The notes below the pieces were generated by a model that did not search any database, was not told the DNA's origin, and saw only the letters and a list, made by a program, of their open reading frames with translations. Below, one piece after another: positions 17,655-56,542 of a stretch of DNA of 64,000 bases. The DNA lies in assembly GCA_023269085.1 (NCBI GenBank), contig JAHFML010000003.1:52863-116862 (forward strand). Reading direction: 5' to 3'. The DNA comes from a bacterium (GTDB taxonomy: Bacteria > Patescibacteriota > Minisyncoccia > Phycocordibacterales > Phycocordibacteraceae). The position numbers and the translations under genes are program-made. Numbering within the stretch: position 1 is the first letter of the stretch; every line of letters starts with the position of its first letter.

Positions 17655-17754
17655 TTTGTGCATATCTGGTTTGCACGAGTGCGCTGGGGGCTTGCTTTTT
17701 TGCATAATGTGTGCTAGTCTAAAACCTAGATAGAACCTTGCCATTACGCACGTT

Positions 17755-17813
17755 CGCCACAGCAGAAAGGGGCTTTCGCCAGTCGGCAGGCTCGGCCGTT
17801 TTCTGCTGTGGCG
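17755..17813 (+). promoter_or_regulatory. Conserved 5' leader stem-loop of DGR-1 target gene (paralogue at 54000..54058)
   Basis: cgccacagcagaaa...tttctgctgtggcg 14-bp stem with an inner hairpin; ~85% identical to the copy upstream of the second DGR target, with compensatory changes in the inner stem. Confidence 0.7.
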
Positions 17814-17887
17814 AACCGAATATGTCGGTGCGTCGTACAGCACGCGACAATATCAGCAATGATAGTCGCACAAAAGGAGATCGCATC

Positions 17888-18604
17888 ATGTTGACCGACT
17901 CTCGCACCATCGCTCAAGCATACGGTCTTGGGCAAAAAGTTTTCTCCGCCGGCGAGGTTGCCGGTATGACGCCAGAGCTTTGGAATGCTCTGGCTCAAGA
18001 CGCGCGATTGTTTGCGCAGCTTCCGGCGATGATCCGCGGCTCTTTGGCGGATGCGTTGGCTGAACAGCGCGAACAGCAACCCAAGTTCTTCACTCACATC
18101 GCGACGACCAACCTTGCCGCGACTGTGGGCAAAAAGACGAGGAAGTGTTTCGTTGGCAGTCGCTATACGTATCGCGACAACGACTTCGACAACTGGCTTC
18201 CCGCCAATCAGCCATCCGCCGATGCCTGCGTTATCACAACGCTTGCTTCTGAGCAGGACTGGACGTTTGCCGAAGCCGCTGCCAAAGTCCTAGGTGTTGG
18301 CGCTGGCACGAACATCATCTTGCTCGGCAAAGCGCTCATCGAGAACGGTCATATCATGACCTTGGCGCAAGCTGAAGAAATGATCGAAGCCAACGAGCAC
18401 GGCGAGAACACCGGTATGCACCGCGATGGTCGGGGCAATTTCTTCTTCGTGGAAACGGAGGACGAAAATAATCCCGTCTCGGTTGGCGGCGTCGGTCGCG
18501 TTGAGCGCGCTTGGGTCGCGTACGTCGGCTGGCTCGTCAGCGGCGATCGCTGGGACGCTGGCGGTCGGCTCCTCGTCCGCAACTTGGACGCTTCGAAACT
18601 CTGA
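17888..18604 (+). CDS. DGR-1 target protein with C-terminal variable region
   Basis: SD AAAGGAGA 7 nt upstream of ATG 17888; C-terminal 36 codons form the VR. Confidence 0.75.
   Translation: MLTDSRTIAQAYGLGQKVFSAGEVAGMTPELWNALAQDARLFAQLPAMIRGSLADALAEQREQQPKFFTHIATTNLAATVGKKTRKCFVGSRYTYRDNDFDNWLPANQPSADACVITTLASEQDWTFAEAAAKVLGVGAGTNIILLGKALIENGHIMTLAQAEEMIEANEHGENTGMHRDGRGNFFFVETEDENNPVSVGGVGRVERAWVAYVGWLVSGDRWDAGGRLLVRNLDASKL
18475..18583 (+). repeat. DGR-1 variable repeat (VR)
   Basis: 109 nt aligning to the TR at 18863..18971; ~20 mismatches, 19 at TR adenines. Confidence 0.9.
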
Positions 18605-18862: not shown

Positions 18863-18971
18863 CGTCTCGGTTGGCAACGTCAATCGCGATGAGCGCGATT
18901 GGAACGCGAACGTCAACCGGCTCGACAACGACAATCGCTGGAACGCTGACAATCGGCTCCTCGTCCGCAAC
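18863..18971 (+). repeat. DGR-1 template repeat (TR)
   Basis: Intergenic; rich in AAC/AAT/GAC codons in the VR frame; all but one difference from the VR are at adenines. Confidence 0.9.
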
Positions 18972-18976
18972 AGATC

Positions 18977-19336
18977 TTACTTTCTCTCGCTTTCTGCGGG
19001 AGTTTTCTTTTCAAGATATGAACGCCATGCGACCAGCATTTTGCTTGCATCAACAAGTAGTCCGCTTATACGTACATGTTGAGCGTTCGTAATCGCATTA
19101 CTCTCCCACCCGACAAGTAGAAGGAATTTCGCCACATCGAGTCGGGCAATTGAGATGTTGAGCGCAGAAATCTTTTGCGCGGACGGAAGATATGCCGCAG
19201 AAAAGGCAGATTCAAGCGTGTCGAGAAGAGCCGTGTCAATTCTCGTACCGATAGTCTGTCGCTTCGTTTTGGCAACGTGAGGGAGTGCTGCTTGCCAAGC
19301 GAGATACGCCTCCTTCAATTTCGATACTACGGGCAC
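18977..19336 (-). CDS. avd: Accessory variability determinant (Avd) homologue, DGR-1
   Basis: 119-aa four-helix-bundle-type protein; resembles Bordetella phage Avd; homologous to the 55141..55509 ORF; GTG start. Confidence 0.7.
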   Translation of the reverse strand: MPVVSKLKEAYLAWQAALPHVAKTKRQTIGTRIDTALLDTLESAFSAAYLPSAQKISALNISIARLDVAKFLLLVGWESNAITNAQHVRISGLLVDASKMLVAWRSYLEKKTPAESERK

Positions 19337-19361
19337 GAGCTTTTCTTGTTGCGGAAACGTC

Positions 19362-19373
19362 GGGGGGGGGGGG
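19362..19373 (+). repeat. Homopolymeric G12 tract in the 50-nt divergent avd/RT intergenic region
   Basis: cgtcGGGGGGGGGGGGtacgttcagaagaATG; lies 14 nt upstream of the RT ATG and 26 nt upstream of the avd start. Confidence 0.95.
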
Positions 19374-19386
19374 TACGTTCAGAAGA

Positions 19387-20409
19387 ATGGATAGAATAAA
19401 TATCACTCATTCCTTCGACAATATCACCTTGGTAGATAATTTGCTCGACGCGTGGAAAGAATTCTTGCGCGGCAAACAGAAGAGGAAAGACGTGCAAGTA
19501 TTCGGATATAATCTAATTGAAAATATAAAAAGCATCCACGCGGACCTCATTTCCGGCATCTACCAGCACGGCCAGTACGAGCACTTCAAAATCAACGACC
19601 CAAAGCCCCGCGACATCCACAAAGCGAGCGTGCGCGACCGGCTCGTGCACCATGCCATTTATCGCATTCTCTACCCATTCTTCGATCGCACTTTTATCAG
19701 CGACTCCTACTCCTGCCGCAATGGGAAGGGGACGCACAAAGCCATGAATCGCTTTAGAGCCTTTGCGCGCAAAGTATCGAAGAATGACACGCGCACTGCT
19801 TGGGTCTTGAAGTGCGACATACGCAAGTTCTTCGCATCGATTGATCAGCCAACGCTCCTCGCCCTCTTGAGAGAACGCATTTCAGACGAACGCACCCTGC
19901 TACTCCTGCAACGAGTTATCGAGAGCTTCTCAAGTACAGCGAGAGGGAAAGGCCTCCCGCTCGGCAATCTCACCTCACAGCTCCTCGTGAACATCTACAT
20001 GAACGAGTCCGATCAATTCGTGAAGCATATACTCAAAGCGAAATACTATATCCGCTATGCCGATGACTTCGTATTCATCTCCCACGATCGCAGAGAACTC
20101 GAGGCGCTTCTGCCTCGTGTCGATGCCTTTTTGCGCGACCGGCTCAAGCTCGAATTGCACCCGAATAAAGTCTCAATCGCCACGCTCGCTTCGGGTATCG
20201 ACTTCTTGGGCTGGGTGCATTTCTCTGACCATCGCGTCTTGCGAGGCGCGACGAAGCGACGGATGTTGCGGAGGATTGAAGAGACGAGCGACAAGCCGGA
20301 GGTGATGAGCTCGTATCTGGGGATGCTAGAGCATGGAAATGGGTACAAGTTGCGAGAAGAGATTATGTATTTGCATACACTCACCGAGGCGCGTACCATG
20401 GTGGCATGA
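19387..20409 (+). CDS. DGR-type reverse transcriptase, DGR-1
   Basis: RT motifs including YADD and the DGR-characteristic LGNLTSQ (motif 4, in place of the group II QGxxxSP); start could alternatively be the upstream in-frame ATG at 19285. Confidence 0.9.
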   Translation: MDRINITHSFDNITLVDNLLDAWKEFLRGKQKRKDVQVFGYNLIENIKSIHADLISGIYQHGQYEHFKINDPKPRDIHKASVRDRLVHHAIYRILYPFFDRTFISDSYSCRNGKGTHKAMNRFRAFARKVSKNDTRTAWVLKCDIRKFFASIDQPTLLALLRERISDERTLLLLQRVIESFSSTARGKGLPLGNLTSQLLVNIYMNESDQFVKHILKAKYYIRYADDFVFISHDRRELEALLPRVDAFLRDRLKLELHPNKVSIATLASGIDFLGWVHFSDHRVLRGATKRRMLRRIEETSDKPEVMSSYLGMLEHGNGYKLREEIMYLHTLTEARTMVA

Positions 20410-22740: not shown

Positions 22741-23783
22741 TCCCCTTTGAAATGCAATTGCTCTAACATGGAGCAATATGCAAAAGCGCCAAGAATTCAA
22801 ACATTTACAACAGAAGGACAGAGACCGTATTCATGATCTGTATCTGTTCGGCCACAGCCAGAAAGGCATCGCGGAAGTACTCGGGGTGAGCCCGGGCACC
22901 ATCTCGCGAGAACTGAAGCGGTATGACAAACGCACCTGGCGGTACTCCGCCACGAGAGCGCAAGAGGACGCAGAGCTGAAGCGTCTGCACAGCAAGCGCC
23001 CCGGCATGAAGATTGCCGAGAACCACGCACTGCGCCAGCAGGTCATTCAAGAACTAAAGAAACTCCGTTCCCCAGACGAGATTGCGGGACGCATGAAGAA
23101 AGAGGGAGTGTCACCACGAGTCGGCAAGAACGCTATATACAAATGGCTGTACAGCGAGGACGGCAAAGCATACTGTCGGTATCTCTGCACCAAACGAACC
23201 AAACCAAGAGGGCGTCGGTACCTTGAGGCACGTGTCCTCATTCCCGATCGAAAGTCCCACAGAACAAGGCCGGATTCCCCAGGGCTCATCCATACCGAAG
23301 GAGACTTGTTCGTATCACCACAAAAGTCAGGATCAACTGTATGTGGCCTTCTCGTGGTGGAAAAAGAGAGCAAGCTATACTCGGGTGCGCTCATTTCAAA
23401 CAAGAGCGCCGCGTTCATCGTACCCGCAATGCGACGAGCAACCCGAGCCGTCAGTGCAGACACCTGTACGCTCGACAATGGCATTGAGAACATCTGCCAT
23501 CGAAACTTCGACGTGGACACCTACTTCTGCGACCCAGGGACACCGACCCAGAAGCCGGATGTTGAGGGGTCAATCGGGCTCGTACGTCGCTGGTTCCTGC
23601 CAAAAGGAACTGACCTGTCCACCGTCTCCAATGAGACATACCAGTCGCAACTGCACCTGCTGAATCACAAGTATCGGAGGTCGCTCGGATACCGGAGTGC
23701 GTATGAAGACGCCCTTGAGCGAGGTATCATCAAACGAGTGCCGAGGGTTTCATTACAAATGGCGATTGCATTTCGCTAGGGAA
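22741..23783. mobile_element. IS30-family insertion sequence (~1.04 kb)
   Basis: Imperfect terminal IRs (CCCTTTGAAATGCAATTGC ... GCGATTGCATTTCGCTAGGG) bracket a single transposase ORF. Confidence 0.75.
22778..23779 (+). CDS. IS30-family DDE transposase
   Basis: N-terminal HTH (HSQKGIAEVLGVSPGTISRELKR), C-terminal DDE-type catalytic domain; ORF ends inside the right IR. Confidence 0.85.
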   Translation: MQKRQEFKHLQQKDRDRIHDLYLFGHSQKGIAEVLGVSPGTISRELKRYDKRTWRYSATRAQEDAELKRLHSKRPGMKIAENHALRQQVIQELKKLRSPDEIAGRMKKEGVSPRVGKNAIYKWLYSEDGKAYCRYLCTKRTKPRGRRYLEARVLIPDRKSHRTRPDSPGLIHTEGDLFVSPQKSGSTVCGLLVVEKESKLYSGALISNKSAAFIVPAMRRATRAVSADTCTLDNGIENICHRNFDVDTYFCDPGTPTQKPDVEGSIGLVRRWFLPKGTDLSTVSNETYQSQLHLLNHKYRRSLGYRSAYEDALERGIIKRVPRVSLQMAIAFR

Positions 23784-40321: not shown

Positions 40322-40334
40322 TTTCACAAAAACA

Positions 40335-40370
40335 GAAAGCACGCGGCGCCTCCGGCGCCGCGTGCTTTCT
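40335..40370 (+). terminator. Rho-independent terminator after rplB (the cluster ends here; no rpsS follows)
   Basis: gaaagcacgcggcgcc tcc ggcgccgcgtgctttc. Confidence 0.75.
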
Positions 40371-40406
40371 CATCGCCTATCCCCACCCCACCCCTTTACC
40401 TCCCCC

Positions 40407-40419
40407 TCGGGGGGGGGGG
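40407..40419 (+). repeat. Homopolymeric G13 tract 40 nt upstream of the surface-protein gene
   Basis: cctcGGGGGGGGGGGGGtacgctacag; flanks closely resemble the G12 tract region of DGR-1 (cgtcG12tacgttcag). Confidence 0.95.
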
Positions 40420-40459
40420 GGTACGCTACAGGTATATCCACCGCGCATAACCCATACCC

Positions 40460-41374
40460 ATGAAAGAACTAACTCGTTCAACGCTCGTCGCCATCGTCGC
40501 CTCATCGCTCTCCCTCCTCGCCTTCTACGCGGTGAGCGCTGGCGCACAATCAGCCTGGACTCCAGCTCCAGCTAACGCTCCCTCAGGCAACGTGGCAGGC
40601 CCCCTCACCACGGGCGCAACCGGTCAGAGCAAAGCCGGTAACCTCATGCTCAACACCGACGGCACCCTCGCCAACGGCCTCATCGTCGCGAATGGGAATG
40701 TGGGTATTGGGACGGTGGCGCCATACTTGCCACTCGTCGTTTATAGTTCGTCAGCCAATGGTTCTGCTGTAGCGCTTGACAGACCGGCTGGCTTGGCTGG
40801 GATGTATCAGGTAAGAACAAACGGATCTCCTCGATGGGTTTTTGGTGCAGACCAAACAACAGAGAGTGGCTCGAATTCCGGATCAAACTTTCGAATTATC
40901 GGGTATAATGATGACGGTCTTGGATTAAATAACGCATTAACAATAAATAGATCCTCCGGCAACGTCGGTATTGGAACGACGAATCCGAACGTCTCGAAGG
41001 GGGCTGGCGGGTATGTCGACGCCAAAGACGTCTATCTCCGTGACGCCGGGAAGTGGGCGAGTGAGGTTGGTGGGAGTGGGAGTATCGTAGCAGGATGCGC
41101 AAAAAATAGGAGAGCAGTTGATTTTTGCGGAAGAGTTAACAACAACCCAGCAGGACTAATCGCTGATGTTTGTTGGGGAGGCGCATCATTTACTACTATT
41201 GAAATAGGCACCCTCGGAGCGGATTGGGGAGCGAGTACCGTTTATACGACAAAGACATTTTCTTGCCCGAGCGGATCCACTGTTCGACTCGTTGGGACTA
41301 TGGGCGAAGGCTGTGGGAGTAACTCATATTCGTCGTCTAGCGTATCACTGGATACCTTTTTCTGTATCAAATAA
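40460..41374 (+). CDS. Secreted Gly/Asn-rich repeat protein (fibre/surface-protein-like)
   Basis: Signal peptide (LVAIVASSLSLLAFYAVSAGAQS); repeated NGNVGIGT / SGNVGIGTTNP motifs; C-terminal Cys-rich region. Confidence 0.6.
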   Translation: MKELTRSTLVAIVASSLSLLAFYAVSAGAQSAWTPAPANAPSGNVAGPLTTGATGQSKAGNLMLNTDGTLANGLIVANGNVGIGTVAPYLPLVVYSSSANGSAVALDRPAGLAGMYQVRTNGSPRWVFGADQTTESGSNSGSNFRIIGYNDDGLGLNNALTINRSSGNVGIGTTNPNVSKGAGGYVDAKDVYLRDAGKWASEVGGSGSIVAGCAKNRRAVDFCGRVNNNPAGLIADVCWGGASFTTIEIGTLGADWGASTVYTTKTFSCPSGSTVRLVGTMGEGCGSNSYSSSSVSLDTFFCIK

Positions 41375-54120: not shown

Positions 54121-54714
54121 ATGAGCGCACAACAGAAGCAAATCACGAAACTAGTGGCCGCTCTGGTCGAGTTTTCTGACCAGTTCGGCCAGATGTCGAC
54201 CGAGGATTGCCAATGGGCAATCCAAAACACGAAAGCGGCAATCGGCCTCTTCGTAGAGGCGGTGAGGAATCGCCCGATAGCAGCTCTGGTCGGGTTGCCA
54301 GAAGGCACGGTCATCCGTCGCGTGAAGGTCGACCGCTCGCATTCTCCGCAGAAAATGGTGAACGCGACCGGCCGTAGGCAGTACATCGACAAGGACATCC
54401 TCGCGACGATGCCTTTGGGCGAAGGCGACGAGGTGGATGTGTACTTCGTACCGACCAAGCGCTTCGTTTTGGCAAGTGAGGTCTCGGCGTTTCTCGCGCA
54501 GTATGGTCTCGTTCCCGACCCGCGCGCGCAAACGGCGGTGAACGAAGCCGATCCGACCTTCGCCGACGACCATCCGAACGGAACGCAATGGAGCGATTTT
54601 TGCTACCTGACGTTCTACCGCTGGTATGACGAGCGGGACGTGTACTGCAACCGCGACGACCGCGTCTGGCGCGGCTATTGGTTCCTCTCGGGTGTCCCGA
54701 CTCCCCGCAAGTAA
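54121..54714 (+). CDS. DGR-2 target protein with C-terminal variable region
   Basis: SD AAGGAGA 5 nt upstream; VR occupies the last ~36 codons (…CYLTFYRWYDERDVYCNRDDRVWRGYWFLSGVPTPRK). Confidence 0.75.
   Translation: MSAQQKQITKLVAALVEFSDQFGQMSTEDCQWAIQNTKAAIGLFVEAVRNRPIAALVGLPEGTVIRRVKVDRSHSPQKMVNATGRRQYIDKDILATMPLGEGDEVDVYFVPTKRFVLASEVSAFLAQYGLVPDPRAQTAVNEADPTFADDHPNGTQWSDFCYLTFYRWYDERDVYCNRDDRVWRGYWFLSGVPTPRK
54601..54707 (+). repeat. DGR-2 variable repeat (VR)
   Basis: 107 nt aligning to 55025..55131; ~14 mismatches, all at TR adenines. Confidence 0.9.
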
Positions 54715-54792: not shown

Positions 54793-55024
54793 ATATGATG
54801 CAAATGGTAGTAGGCGAATACGGAAGCGATTACGGTTTCTTCCTGCCGAATCCAGTATCCGTACGTTGAGAACGTGTGCGATTACGGTTGCATATGGAGG
54901 ATGTACGCAGAAACTTCAAAAAATGAAGATACTTGGTGTGAAGTGCTGGCGCATTACCGATGCCGAATACGATTCAACCTTGAGAATACTCGATGGGTGG
55001 TGGCACAGATGGCGCTCCATACAT

Positions 55025-55131
55025 TGCTACCTGACGTTCAACCGCTGGAATGACGAGCGGAACGTGAACTGCAACCGCAACGACAACGACTGGAACGACA
55101 ATTGGTTCCTCTCGGGTGTCCCGACTCCCCG
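55025..55131 (+). repeat. DGR-2 template repeat (TR)
   Basis: AAC-rich in VR frame (…NRWNDERNVNCNRNDNDWNDNWF…); intergenic. Confidence 0.9.
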
Positions 55132-55140
55132 TAACTCTCT

Positions 55141-55509
55141 TCATTTCTCGCCCGAACCTCTATGTTCGGGCGAGTTTTGTTTAACGAGCTGCCCATTCCA
55201 TCCACCAAGCATTCTCCCGACCTCCTCAAGTGGCATCGAGAGAGCGATGTATTTCTTCGTATCGAGCGATTTGGTCTCCCAGAGGATGAGTAAGAATATT
55301 TTTAGCGTATCGAGTTTACGAATAGCGAGACGCACCCACGGCTGTTTCTCAGTTTTTGAGAGAAAGCTTGCACTTGCGACTGCTTCAATCAACGCAACGA
55401 ATTCCGCGTCAACTGTTCCACCGAGCGTGTGCCGATGGGTCTTCGGTATGGTTTGATAAAATCCATACCATATAATATACGCATGCTTAATACGCTCGAG
55501 CACCGGCAA
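55141..55509 (-). CDS. avd: Avd homologue, DGR-2
   Basis: 122 aa; ...LSMPLEEVGRMLGGWNGQLVKQ resembles the Avd C-terminus; TTG start. Confidence 0.7.
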   Translation of the reverse strand: MPVLERIKHAYIIWYGFYQTIPKTHRHTLGGTVDAEFVALIEAVASASFLSKTEKQPWVRLAIRKLDTLKIFLLILWETKSLDTKKYIALSMPLEEVGRMLGGWNGQLVKQNSPEHRGSGEK

Positions 55510-55516
55510 GAGCCTC

Positions 55517-55526
55517 GGGGGGGGGG
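55517..55526 (+). repeat. Homopolymeric G10 tract between divergent avd-2 and RT-2
   Basis: agcctcGGGGGGGGGGagcttcgaag; 8 nt upstream of avd-2 start. Confidence 0.95.
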
Positions 55527-55606
55527 AGCTTCGAAGAATCGAATTCGTTCATACCTATGAGCATATCATCTCGATCGAGAACCTTCTCGACGCGTGGCGA
55601 GAATTC

Positions 55607-56542
55607 GTGAGAGGGAAGAAGAAGCGTGCGGATGTGCAAGAGTTCGAGAGAGACTTGATGCAAAATGTCATATCGTTGCATCGTTATCTCGTGTCTGGCG
55701 CGTACCAGCACGGCCAGTACGAGCGCTTCAAAATCAACGACCCCAAGCCTCGCGACATCCACAAAGCGAGCGTGCGCGATCGGCTCGTGCACCATGCCAT
55801 CTATCGCATTCTATATCCATTCTTCGACCGCACTTTCATCAGCGACTCCTATTCCTGCCGCAATGGGAAGGGAACGCACAGAGCCATGAATCGCTTTAGA
55901 GCCTTTGCGCGCAAAGTATCGAAGAATGACACGCGCACTGCTTGGGTCTTGAAGTGCGACATACGCAAGTTCTTCGCCTCGATTGATCAGTCAACGCTCC
56001 TCGTCATCTTGAAGAGACGCATAACAGACGAACGCACGCTGACACTTCTGCAACGAGTTATCGAGAGCTTCCGCACACCCTGTGCAACACCTGGTGTTGC
56101 ACAAAAAGGCCTCCCGCTTGGCAACCTTACCTCACAACTCCTCGTGAACATCTACATGAACGAGTTCGATCAATTCGTGAAGCACGCGCTCAAAGCAAGA
56201 TACTATCTCCGCTATGCCGATGACTTCGTATTCATCTCTCACGACCGCAGAGAGCTCGAGGCGCTTCTGCCTCGGGTCGATGCCTTTTTGCGCGACCGGC
56301 TCAAGCTCGAACTGCATCCAGACAAAGTCTCAATCGCCACGCTCGCTTCGGGTATCGACTTCTTGGGCTGGGTGCATTTCTCTGACCATCGCGTTGTGCG
56401 AGGCGCGACGAAGCGGCGGATGTTGCGGAGGATTGAAGAGATGGGTGGCAAGCCAGAGGTGGTGAGCTCGTATCTGGGGATGCTCTCGCACGGGAACGCG
56501 TACCGGCTTGTTGCTCATATTTCAGAACAGAAGGAAAAGTGA
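55607..56542 (+). CDS. DGR-type reverse transcriptase, DGR-2
   Basis: ~85% identical to RT-1; YADD and LGNLTSQ motifs; no ATG equivalent to RT-1 Met1 (ATG->ATC), so the true N-terminus is unclear. Confidence 0.85.
   Translation: MRGKKKRADVQEFERDLMQNVISLHRYLVSGAYQHGQYERFKINDPKPRDIHKASVRDRLVHHAIYRILYPFFDRTFISDSYSCRNGKGTHRAMNRFRAFARKVSKNDTRTAWVLKCDIRKFFASIDQSTLLVILKRRITDERTLTLLQRVIESFRTPCATPGVAQKGLPLGNLTSQLLVNIYMNEFDQFVKHALKARYYLRYADDFVFISHDRRELEALLPRVDAFLRDRLKLELHPDKVSIATLASGIDFLGWVHFSDHRVVRGATKRRMLRRIEEMGGKPEVVSSYLGMLSHGNAYRLVAHISEQKEK

Follow-up and report, generated by a model that had tools for sequence, protein, structure and literature searches.

A homopolymeric G/C tract between avd and reverse transcriptase genes as a candidate phase-variation switch of DGR activity in Patescibacteria

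INTRODUCTION

The DGR of Bordetella phage BPP-1, with the gene order mtd-avd-TR-brt, is one of the described systems closest to the elements reported here; we know of no repeat tract in its avd gene. Promoter-located tracts are known from porA and opc of Neisseria meningitidis and from Haemophilus influenzae, where a (TA)n repeat lies between the divergent promoters of hifA and hifB; poly-G or poly-C tracts upstream of −10 boxes occur at Neisseria porA and opc and at Bordetella fim. Other tracts of the promoter-located type are the poly-A of N. meningitidis nspA (PMC6389960) and the homopolymeric tracts of Bordetella pertussis (PMC1891110). Contingency loci of another type have poly-G in the 5′ coding region, as in N. 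meningitidis hmbR and hpuA (PMC3786947) and in genes of Campylobacter jejuni (PMC8355987). Leaderless genes of Mycobacterium and other bacteria have a TANNNT box about 7 nt upstream of the A/GTG start (PMC3898074, PMC4633059).

A recent Bacteroides study says of the mechanisms that regulate mutagenic retrohoming that they ‘await discovery’ (bioRxiv 10.1101/2024.11.15.621889). A CPR-restricted DGR clade has been delineated (clade 2 of PMC8144416). The searchable DGR surveys make no mention of a repeat tract in avd, and homopolymers or phase variation go unmentioned in this context in the searchable DGR and CPR literature, a scope outside which the primary CPR-DGR paper (Paul et al. 2017) lies. 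Here we describe a homopolymeric tract in the avd–reverse transcriptase junction of two DGRs from one patescibacterial contig, and its counterparts in related genomes.

RESULTS

A G12 tract separates avd-1 and RT-1

The window, i.e. the whole stretch of 64,000 nt that was analysed, contains two DGRs, DGR-1 and DGR-2. The parts of DGR-1 and the tract are as follows.

18475–18583, plus strand: variable repeat VR-1, at the 3′ end of the target gene (17738–18604)
18863–18971, plus strand: template repeat TR-1
18977–19336, minus strand: core of Avd-1, a predicted four-helix bundle like bAvd; GTG 19336 probably encodes an internal Val instead of serving as the start
19362–19373, no strand: G12/C12 homopolymer; on the minus strand Pro codons in the putative avd-1 frame, on the plus strand adjoining the −10-like box of RT-1
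19387–20409, plus strand: RT-1, the DGR reverse transcriptase

DGR-1 is a genuine DGR and has been active, because the mismatches between TR-1 and VR-1 are adenine-specific (about 21 of about 22 fall at TR adenines), RT-1 matches RVT_1 (E = 3e-24) and bAvd matches were found. The bAvd scores in Pfam, 39.3 bits for Avd-2 (E = 1e-9) and 19.7 bits for Avd-1, are both below the 40-bit cutoff; close homologs of both proteins carry precomputed PF22296 matches. Homologs of RT-1 number thousands in CPR/Patescibacteria, the closest named ones being from Kaiserbacteria. Downstream of RT-1, at 22778–23779, there is a 333-aa ORF with an N-terminal helix-turn-helix, which we take to resemble an IS30-family transposase.

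The first-pass annotation had reported a G12 homopolymer between avd-1 and RT-1; the sequence and a second assembly both confirm it. The run (G on the plus strand) is separated by 13 nt (19374–19386) from the RT-1 ATG at 19387, and by 25 nt (19337–19361) from GTG 19336, which opens the longest avd-1 ORF. A tract of this length is far beyond chance: under a first-order Markov model the expected number of G runs of at least 12 nt is ~0.0015 per window. G/C runs longer than 6 nt occur in the window only three times (G12, G13 at 40409–40421 and G10 at 55517–55526), and all three have G on the plus strand. Slippage requires about 8 or more G/C; the present tract has 12, and the mode in the family is 9–10. 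An independent Logan assembly of the same sequence (contig L001) also has G12, so that no length heterogeneity was seen at the RT-1/avd-1 junction between these two assemblies; when other assemblies were queried for the identical RT-1 protein and for the protein encoded after G13, a second ENA contig emerged. An Rfam search of the junction matched no family.

TACGCT comes immediately after the G13 run (context 40334–40460); this is the arrangement of G12-TACGTT at RT-1. The run is flanked by the rplB terminator hairpin and by a gene for a 304-aa signal-peptide protein (40460–41374) that occupies the usual place of rpsS after rplB. It is possible that this protein is a promoter-linked phase-variable surface protein.

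The tract is conserved at the junction in related DGR loci

We used the conserved RT motifs LPLGNLTSQ and LLVNIYMN as search patterns and fetched 80 species-level loci, 70 of which had enough upstream sequence for the junction to be counted. A run of G6–G14 (mode 9–10) is present at the equivalent junction in 62 of these 70 related CPR DGR loci, whose GC content ranges over 31–59%. In the 426 kb of fetched sequence, 57 runs of eight or more Gs are at the junction and nine elsewhere; among these nine, three are junction runs missed by the anchor and three belong to a single locus, L054 (its own junction G12 and a poly-C artefact by a scaffold gap). A scan of metagenome DNA with the flanks and a free, too permissive, gap yielded three real matches.

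The L054 contig (623–861) has a scaffold break at the tract, with a G12 junction copy, 10 Ns, C41-G-C12 and a duplicated RT start. This arrangement is an assembly artefact, and such tracts act as assembly breakpoints. Along with the T-to-G miscalls beside the runs of L236, L100 and L091, which are sequencing noise, it raises the question of whether the tract itself could be an artefact of assembly or sequencing (two-colour poly-G), or else a mutational hotspot devoid of function. We find this hardly credible: position, orientation and flanks are the same in 62 independent genomes from many projects and assemblers, and two assemblies agree on G12. As for a neutral hotspot, unselected homopolymers decay, while the tract persists over 31–59% GC.

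Four loci have another simple repeat at the junction: (GGCT)n, (GA)n twice and (GCTGATT)n. None of these replacements has a triplet unit, and on the avd strand none contains a stop in any frame (on the RT strand the 7-mer includes TGA); two of the four loci are in frame with Avd and two are out of frame. Three loci (L076, L024 and L044) have no repeat at the junction at all. What is conserved is the DNA homopolymer and not the prolines, because CCC makes up only 23% of Pro codons in the neighbouring RT genes and the repeat-free loci have no poly-Pro at that position.

The start of avd probably lies beyond the tract

The avd-1 start had been placed 26 nt from the tract, at GTG 19336. This is probably not the real start. 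The codon is GTA, GTC or ATC in close relatives, with GTA or GTC in those nearest to avd-1, and a synonymous Leu codon in the wider family: the codon preceding the conserved Pro-Val of Avd is TTG in only 17 of 45 loci, the others having TTA, CTC, CTA, CTG or CTT (Leu), or GTC, GTA or ATC. Variation that is synonymous or among Val, Ile and Leu is what a translated residue would show, rather than a start; and since only one to few non-start codons lie between it and the C-run, the avd frame must open at the run or on its far side. In twelve out-of-frame loci the conserved Avd N-terminus lacks any canonical start in the assembled frame. Both avd copies of the window keep GTG or TTG at the conserved Val/Leu codon, which may permit low-level internal initiation or termination-reinitiation.

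The real start of avd-1 is probably a minus-strand ATG at 19410–19408, antisense of the RT-1 His8 codon CAT. The minus-strand features connected with it are listed below.

19418–19426, minus strand: TGA-TATTGT, resembling an extended −10 box, with 7 nt between it and the ATG; lies in the RT-1 coding sequence and is the predicted promoter of a leaderless avd mRNA
19408–19410, minus strand: predicted avd-1 start ATG, antisense of the RT-1 His8 codon CAT; the CAT is conserved and the frame open
19374–19407, minus strand: putative codons 2–12 of the avd-1 extension and position 1 of codon 13 (SDIYSIHSSER-T); the same DNA also carries the start region of RT-1
19337–19361, minus strand: linker between tract and Avd core, TFPQQEKL in the Avd frame
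19327–19410, minus strand: 27-codon ORF of the C12 allele as assembled, closed by TAG 19329–19327; the out-of-frame ‘OFF’ state

At C12 the frame of this ATG reads MSDIYSIHSSERTPPPRRFRNKKSSCP and stops (27 aa). In a simulation with n = 9–14, C13 or C10 joined it to Avd-1, giving 143/144 aa. The earlier proposal that an upstream minus-strand ATG reads through the C-tract and would fuse to Avd if the tract were 1 nt longer thus holds, with C10 as a second solution. The predicted avd extension peptides are MSDIYSIHSSER and TPPPPTFPQQEK. The linker is kept at the protein level, with synonymous changes, in a relative of the P0005 group and is stop-free in 48 loci.

Conservation of this upstream frame, on which the proposal of the first-pass annotation depends, is borne out by several patterns. 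The conserved His of the N-terminal ‘x-H-x-Y’ motif of RT (codon −10) is encoded by CAT in 54 of 57 loci, compared with 575 of 1055 His codons (55%) elsewhere in the same genes (p = 1e-8, a value that overstates independence, the loci being related). RT codon −6 is NAT in 62 of 65 loci and codon −5 is ATC in 59 of 69, with a background of 61% T in the third-base profile; the intervening Tyr and Phe codons are unbiased. Complemented to the minus strand, these three constrained third positions supply the A of the ATG, the A in TAnnnT and the G in the ‘TGn’ of an extended −10. The resulting minus-strand consensus, TGATATcnT-N7-ATG, has the same 7-nt geometry as the RT strand and other genes of this genome.

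No stop interrupts the ATG frame before the tract in any of 47 loci (47/47), the other two frames being open in 2 and 9; in matched 12-codon windows of RT bodies that antisense frame is open in only 67%. Between run and His, the codons TTA, CTA and TCA account for 0 of 52 Leu/Ser codons, against 20% in RT bodies. In the repeat-free L076 and L024 the minus-strand ATG continues in frame into Avd; in L044, also repeat-free, avd and RT overlap by their 5′ ends, and each start codon is the complement of a His codon of the partner gene. Of the 120 best-scoring gene-called Avd homologs in the database, a sample biased by a query that carried the extension, 77 begin with M...PP(P)(P)xxLL before the core (M...PPP...LLPV), and at least seven more were missed by the regular expression. 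The extension is outside the bAvd fold, because the Pfam domain starts at about VPVV.

Taken as comparative sequence data, these patterns show selection on the minus-strand ATG, the promoter-like box and the open frame. That the extension is translated and that transcription starts where we place it, we infer from the same comparisons.

A second conserved minus-strand ATG is located inside the TGATAT box. We rejected it as the start in the common His-type loci, where it is in another frame that is mostly closed, and where it is better read as part of the putative extended −10 box. In His-less loci of the P0064 type this second ATG appears to be the start (MISSY... proteins).

Tract length varies among near-identical relatives

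Populations of contigs with identical RT were gathered by exact-protein look-up, using RTs whose called ORF excludes the tract, so that the samples are unbiased for tract length. Five such populations were compared.

P0064: G11 in two contigs, G10 in four, G9 in one, and one interrupted run
P0022 (closest relative of RT-1): G10 in seven contigs, G9 in one, and one T-to-G variant
P0081: G9 in four contigs
P0005: G8 in four contigs, and one contig with miscalls
P0052: G7 in four contigs

The first-pass annotation had proposed to look for heterogeneity of tract length. The present locus gave G12 twice; in relatives the assemblies are polymorphic in two of the five populations, with G9, G10 and G11 in one and G10 and G9 in the other, among near-identical contigs. 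In the P0022 set the tract is the sole indel in nine contigs of 3.4 kb. In the P0064 set it is the sole multi-state indel, and most other differences are substitutions clustered in the VR. The longer tracts vary and the shorter ones do not, as slippage predicts: the three populations with G7, G8 and G9 are invariant in length, and all are out of frame. In-frame and out-of-frame alleles are both present within a population.

Within L087–L094 (alignment columns 184–314), contigs with an identical RT differ by clustered substitutions in the VR of the target. This indicates ongoing DGR diversification in the P0064 population, which also carries the G9, G10 and G11 alleles.

Across species, 17 of 41 loci are in frame, indistinguishable from 1/3. 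In-frame alleles are thus not enriched over 1/3 among these loci, a result uninformative for a free-running switch: the ratio fits such a switch, and it fits equally a tract whose frame is irrelevant, for instance through slippage of the ribosome or RNA polymerase. Such slippage amounts to constitutive recoding, with the frame restored by ribosomal (CCC-CCC) or RNA-polymerase slippage and the tract serving as an attenuator that keeps Avd low, without a heritable switch. Besides the seemingly random frames, it is favoured by the stable short tracts (G7–G9) that are out of frame in several populations despite intact DGR genes, and long homopolymers are slippery for tRNA-Pro. RNA-polymerase slippage, on the other hand, is to our knowledge documented mainly for A/T runs; the repeats (TC)n, (AGCC)n and (AATCAGC)n found at the same place are not known slippery sites; and the repeat-free loci are simply in frame. 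We regard recoding as improbable on balance.

The RT strand: a −10-like box rather than a Shine-Dalgarno sequence

19374–19379, plus strand: −10-like hexamer TACGTT, adjoining the tract and followed by 7 nt and the RT-1 ATG; predicted promoter of a leaderless RT mRNA

The tract had been assigned to the Shine-Dalgarno (SD) position of RT-1, with its length setting the SD-to-ATG spacing. The run is indeed G-rich and upstream of the RT ATG. However, runs of any length have their 3′ edge at the same distance of 13 nt from the ATG, so that slippage leaves the spacing of the nearest Gs unchanged; 13 nt is long for an SD, which is a purine-rich motif 5–10 nt upstream of the start in an SD-using organism; and the interval is filled by the −10-like box. 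SD-like motifs precede only 3 of the 57 putative genes in the window. The assignment is not supported, and we consider an SD role of the tract highly unlikely.

In 25 loci including RT-1 the run is directly followed by TAnnnT, 7 nt and ATG, the three specified positions of the box being T in 24, A in 22 and T in 23 of the 25. A TAnnnT box at the expected position upstream of the start is found for 12 of the 57 genes of the window; several of these boxes are near-consensus, of TATAAT type, 6–8 nt before the ATG (e.g. at 1847, 14345, 41521, 51932 and 58354). Because SD motifs are near absent and −10 boxes are common before the ATG, the organism appears to rely largely on leaderless (or SD-independent) initiation, and for the nucleotides that follow the tract a −10 box is a better interpretation than SD spacing.

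If both predicted starts are right, the transcripts of RT-1 and avd-1 begin face to face with a 5′ overlap of about 24 nt. The predicted −10 boxes of the two genes are about 40 bp apart, and RNA polymerases at the two promoters would then probably be mutually exclusive.

The direct contact of the tract with a conserved TAnnnT-N7-ATG on the RT strand brings up a switch at the promoter level, in which the tract would serve the RT promoter, and perhaps other promoters, as a spacer or upstream element and tune transcription by its length; such a switch may coexist with a frame switch. The combination of Gn and a −10-like box also occurs at genes other than RT: G13-TACGCT in the window, and in another CPR genome (L047) a G10-TATAAT-N6-ATG and a G10 before an Avd-like gene. 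In the RT-1 subfamily, moreover, a TTGCGG/TTGCGA hexamer is present 15–19 nt upstream of the −10 box; this candidate −35 is, however, also constrained by Avd coding. A promoter-spacer switch of the porA/opc type would have the tract between a recognisable −35 and −10, with a total spacing near 17 nt. A strict sigma-70 scan found no −35/−10 pair at the junction, and linker and run lengths do not compensate each other (Spearman −0.03). The repeat arrays of about 40–75 nt in L011, L068 and L077 are too long for a spacer. Conservation of the minus-strand ATG, its open frame and the Leu-codon pattern would all be left unexplained. We therefore hold a promoter-level switch to be rather unlikely, even if it is not a negligible option.

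The two G10 runs of L047 (3404–3413 and 5253–5262) are at the start regions of non-RT genes; the G10-TATAAT-N6-ATG precedes a gene for a signal-peptide repeat protein, and the other G10 lies 12 nt before a second Avd-like gene.

The second DGR of the window

DGR-2 has the same layout as DGR-1, i.e. target, TR, reversed avd, tract and RT.

55024–55134, plus strand: TR-2, paired with VR-2 (54600–54710) in the target gene 54121–54714
55141–55509, minus strand: Avd-2 core (bAvd, E = 1e-9)
55471–55485, plus strand: TATAAT-N6-ATG, candidate true start of RT-2 (ATG 55483), upstream of the tract
55517–55526, no strand: G10/C10 tract, at the equivalent junction of the second DGR
55550–55552, minus strand: predicted avd-2 start ATG, complementary to a His codon of RT-2, behind TGA-TATGCT at 55560–55568 (TGATATGCT)

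TR-2 and VR-2 form a 111-nt pair with 88% identity. From the putative avd-2 start the assembled C10 gives 21 aa, whereas C9 or C12 gives 136/137 aa. Between the in-frame stop at 55457 and GTG 55607 the RT-2 frame contains no ATG, GTG or TTG; the database annotation shortens RT-2 to 294 aa (P0003), and homology of RT-2 to RT-1 begins right after G10. From ATG 55483, upstream of the tract, the assembled G10 gives 25 aa, and G9 or G12 gives 352/353 aa. Five relatives of the RT-2 subclass have TAGAAT/TAGAGT-N7-ATG 53–56 nt upstream of the run. In the DGR-2 subclass, then, one tract probably gates both avd and RT. As assembled, DGR-1 and DGR-2 are each one slip away from an in-frame state.

The in-frame length classes of RT and Avd match in seven of seven clear cases. 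We rejected this match as evidence: it is a geometric identity wherever both ATGs are complementary to in-frame His codons of the opposite gene.

RT-1 and RT-2 (19590–20100 compared with 55720–56250) share long identical protein stretches, with 84% identity overall, and Logan contig L001 stops near the point from which the two copies are almost the same. Both observations suggest a duplication or gene conversion event in the recent past, with the copies collapsing in assemblies.

DISCUSSION

The first-pass annotation suggested that a slippage-prone tract acts as a translational ON/OFF switch; for Avd, this core idea is supported by the comparative evidence, and neither of the two outcomes named as counting against it, an invariant tract length and an unconserved ATG frame, was observed among the relatives as a whole. 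Our main reading is that avd carries the tract as a contingency repeat near the 5′ end of its coding sequence, by which DGR activity is gated. We give it a probability of roughly 65%, and not more, mainly because the variation in tract length was seen in relatives, with G12 in both assemblies of this locus, and because the near-random frames also fit a slippery attenuator.

The mechanism that we propose for this contingency repeat would operate as follows. An extended −10 promoter (TGATATTGT), concealed within the first codons of RT on the opposite strand, would drive a leaderless avd mRNA. Translation would start at ATG 19410–19408 and proceed through 12 codons, the C-tract read as prolines, the short linker and the conserved Avd core. 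Slippage during replication would alter the homopolymer in steps of 1 nt and so shift the frame: C12 would yield the 27-aa peptide and no Avd, C13 or C10 full-length Avd-1. Given that DGR reverse transcriptases require Avd, the tract would gate mutagenic retrohoming in a stochastic and heritable manner. RT-1 would keep its own start downstream of the tract, behind the −10 box (TACGTT-N7-ATG) that adjoins it; in DGR-2 the RT frame probably crosses the tract too, and a single tract would gate both genes. Reversible switching and control of DGR activity in vivo are what we infer from this arrangement.

A broader view can be offered only tentatively, and we lean somewhat against it: the CPR DGR lineage as a whole would be under a ‘mutator of the mutator’, a hypermutable repeat placed in the head-to-head overlap of leaderless genes whose starts are antisense to His codons. 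In the DGR-2 type one tract would set the frame of Avd and RT together, both being on only at G9 or G12, with most cells off and a small, constantly renewed subpopulation hypermutating.

If the contingency-repeat reading is true, the slippage tract in avd is a simple control element, readable from sequence, for the CPR-restricted DGR clade, and the on/off state of a DGR could be predicted from metagenomic reads. It would also explain the frequent mis-annotation or N-terminal truncation of avd in CPR genomes and, within the searchable literature, would be the first indication of classical contingency loci in Patescibacteria. For annotation, leaderless models are needed for gene starts in these genomes, and a frameshifted avd at such a tract should not be dismissed as a pseudogene.

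Repeat-mediated frame switching as such is known; what is new is its use at a DGR accessory gene, the face-to-face overlap of leaderless genes and the breadth of conservation. With contingency loci the present system shares a G/C tract of about 8–13 nt early in the ORF, the predicted frame shift on ±1 slippage, length polymorphism between near-identical genomes (here of relatives) and the substitution of other non-triplet repeats for the tract. It differs from them in that the gated gene is an accessory factor of a targeted-mutagenesis retroelement rather than a surface antigen, that the tract lies in DNA whose other strand also encodes the start of the partner RT, both genes looking leaderless, and that conservation extends CPR-wide in the DGR lineage instead of over a few strains of a pathogen. 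Like the promoter-located tracts, the tract lies between divergent genes immediately upstream of a −10-like box; unlike them, it has no −35 partner, it is apparently transcribed and translated on the opposite strand, and long arrays substitute for it in some loci.

In comparison with the BPP-1 DGR, the elements described here likewise have an RT, a predicted bAvd-like protein, TR/VR differences that are adenine-specific in DGR-1 and a VR at the 3′ end of the target, but the order is target-TR-avd(reversed)-RT, and avd and RT overlap head to head. As in the leaderless genes of Mycobacterium, a TAnnnT ends 7 nt before the ATG, here on both strands, and there is no SD; unlike in those genes, the two predicted units face each other with a 5′ overlap of about 24 nt, and each promoter is inside the coding sequence of the partner.
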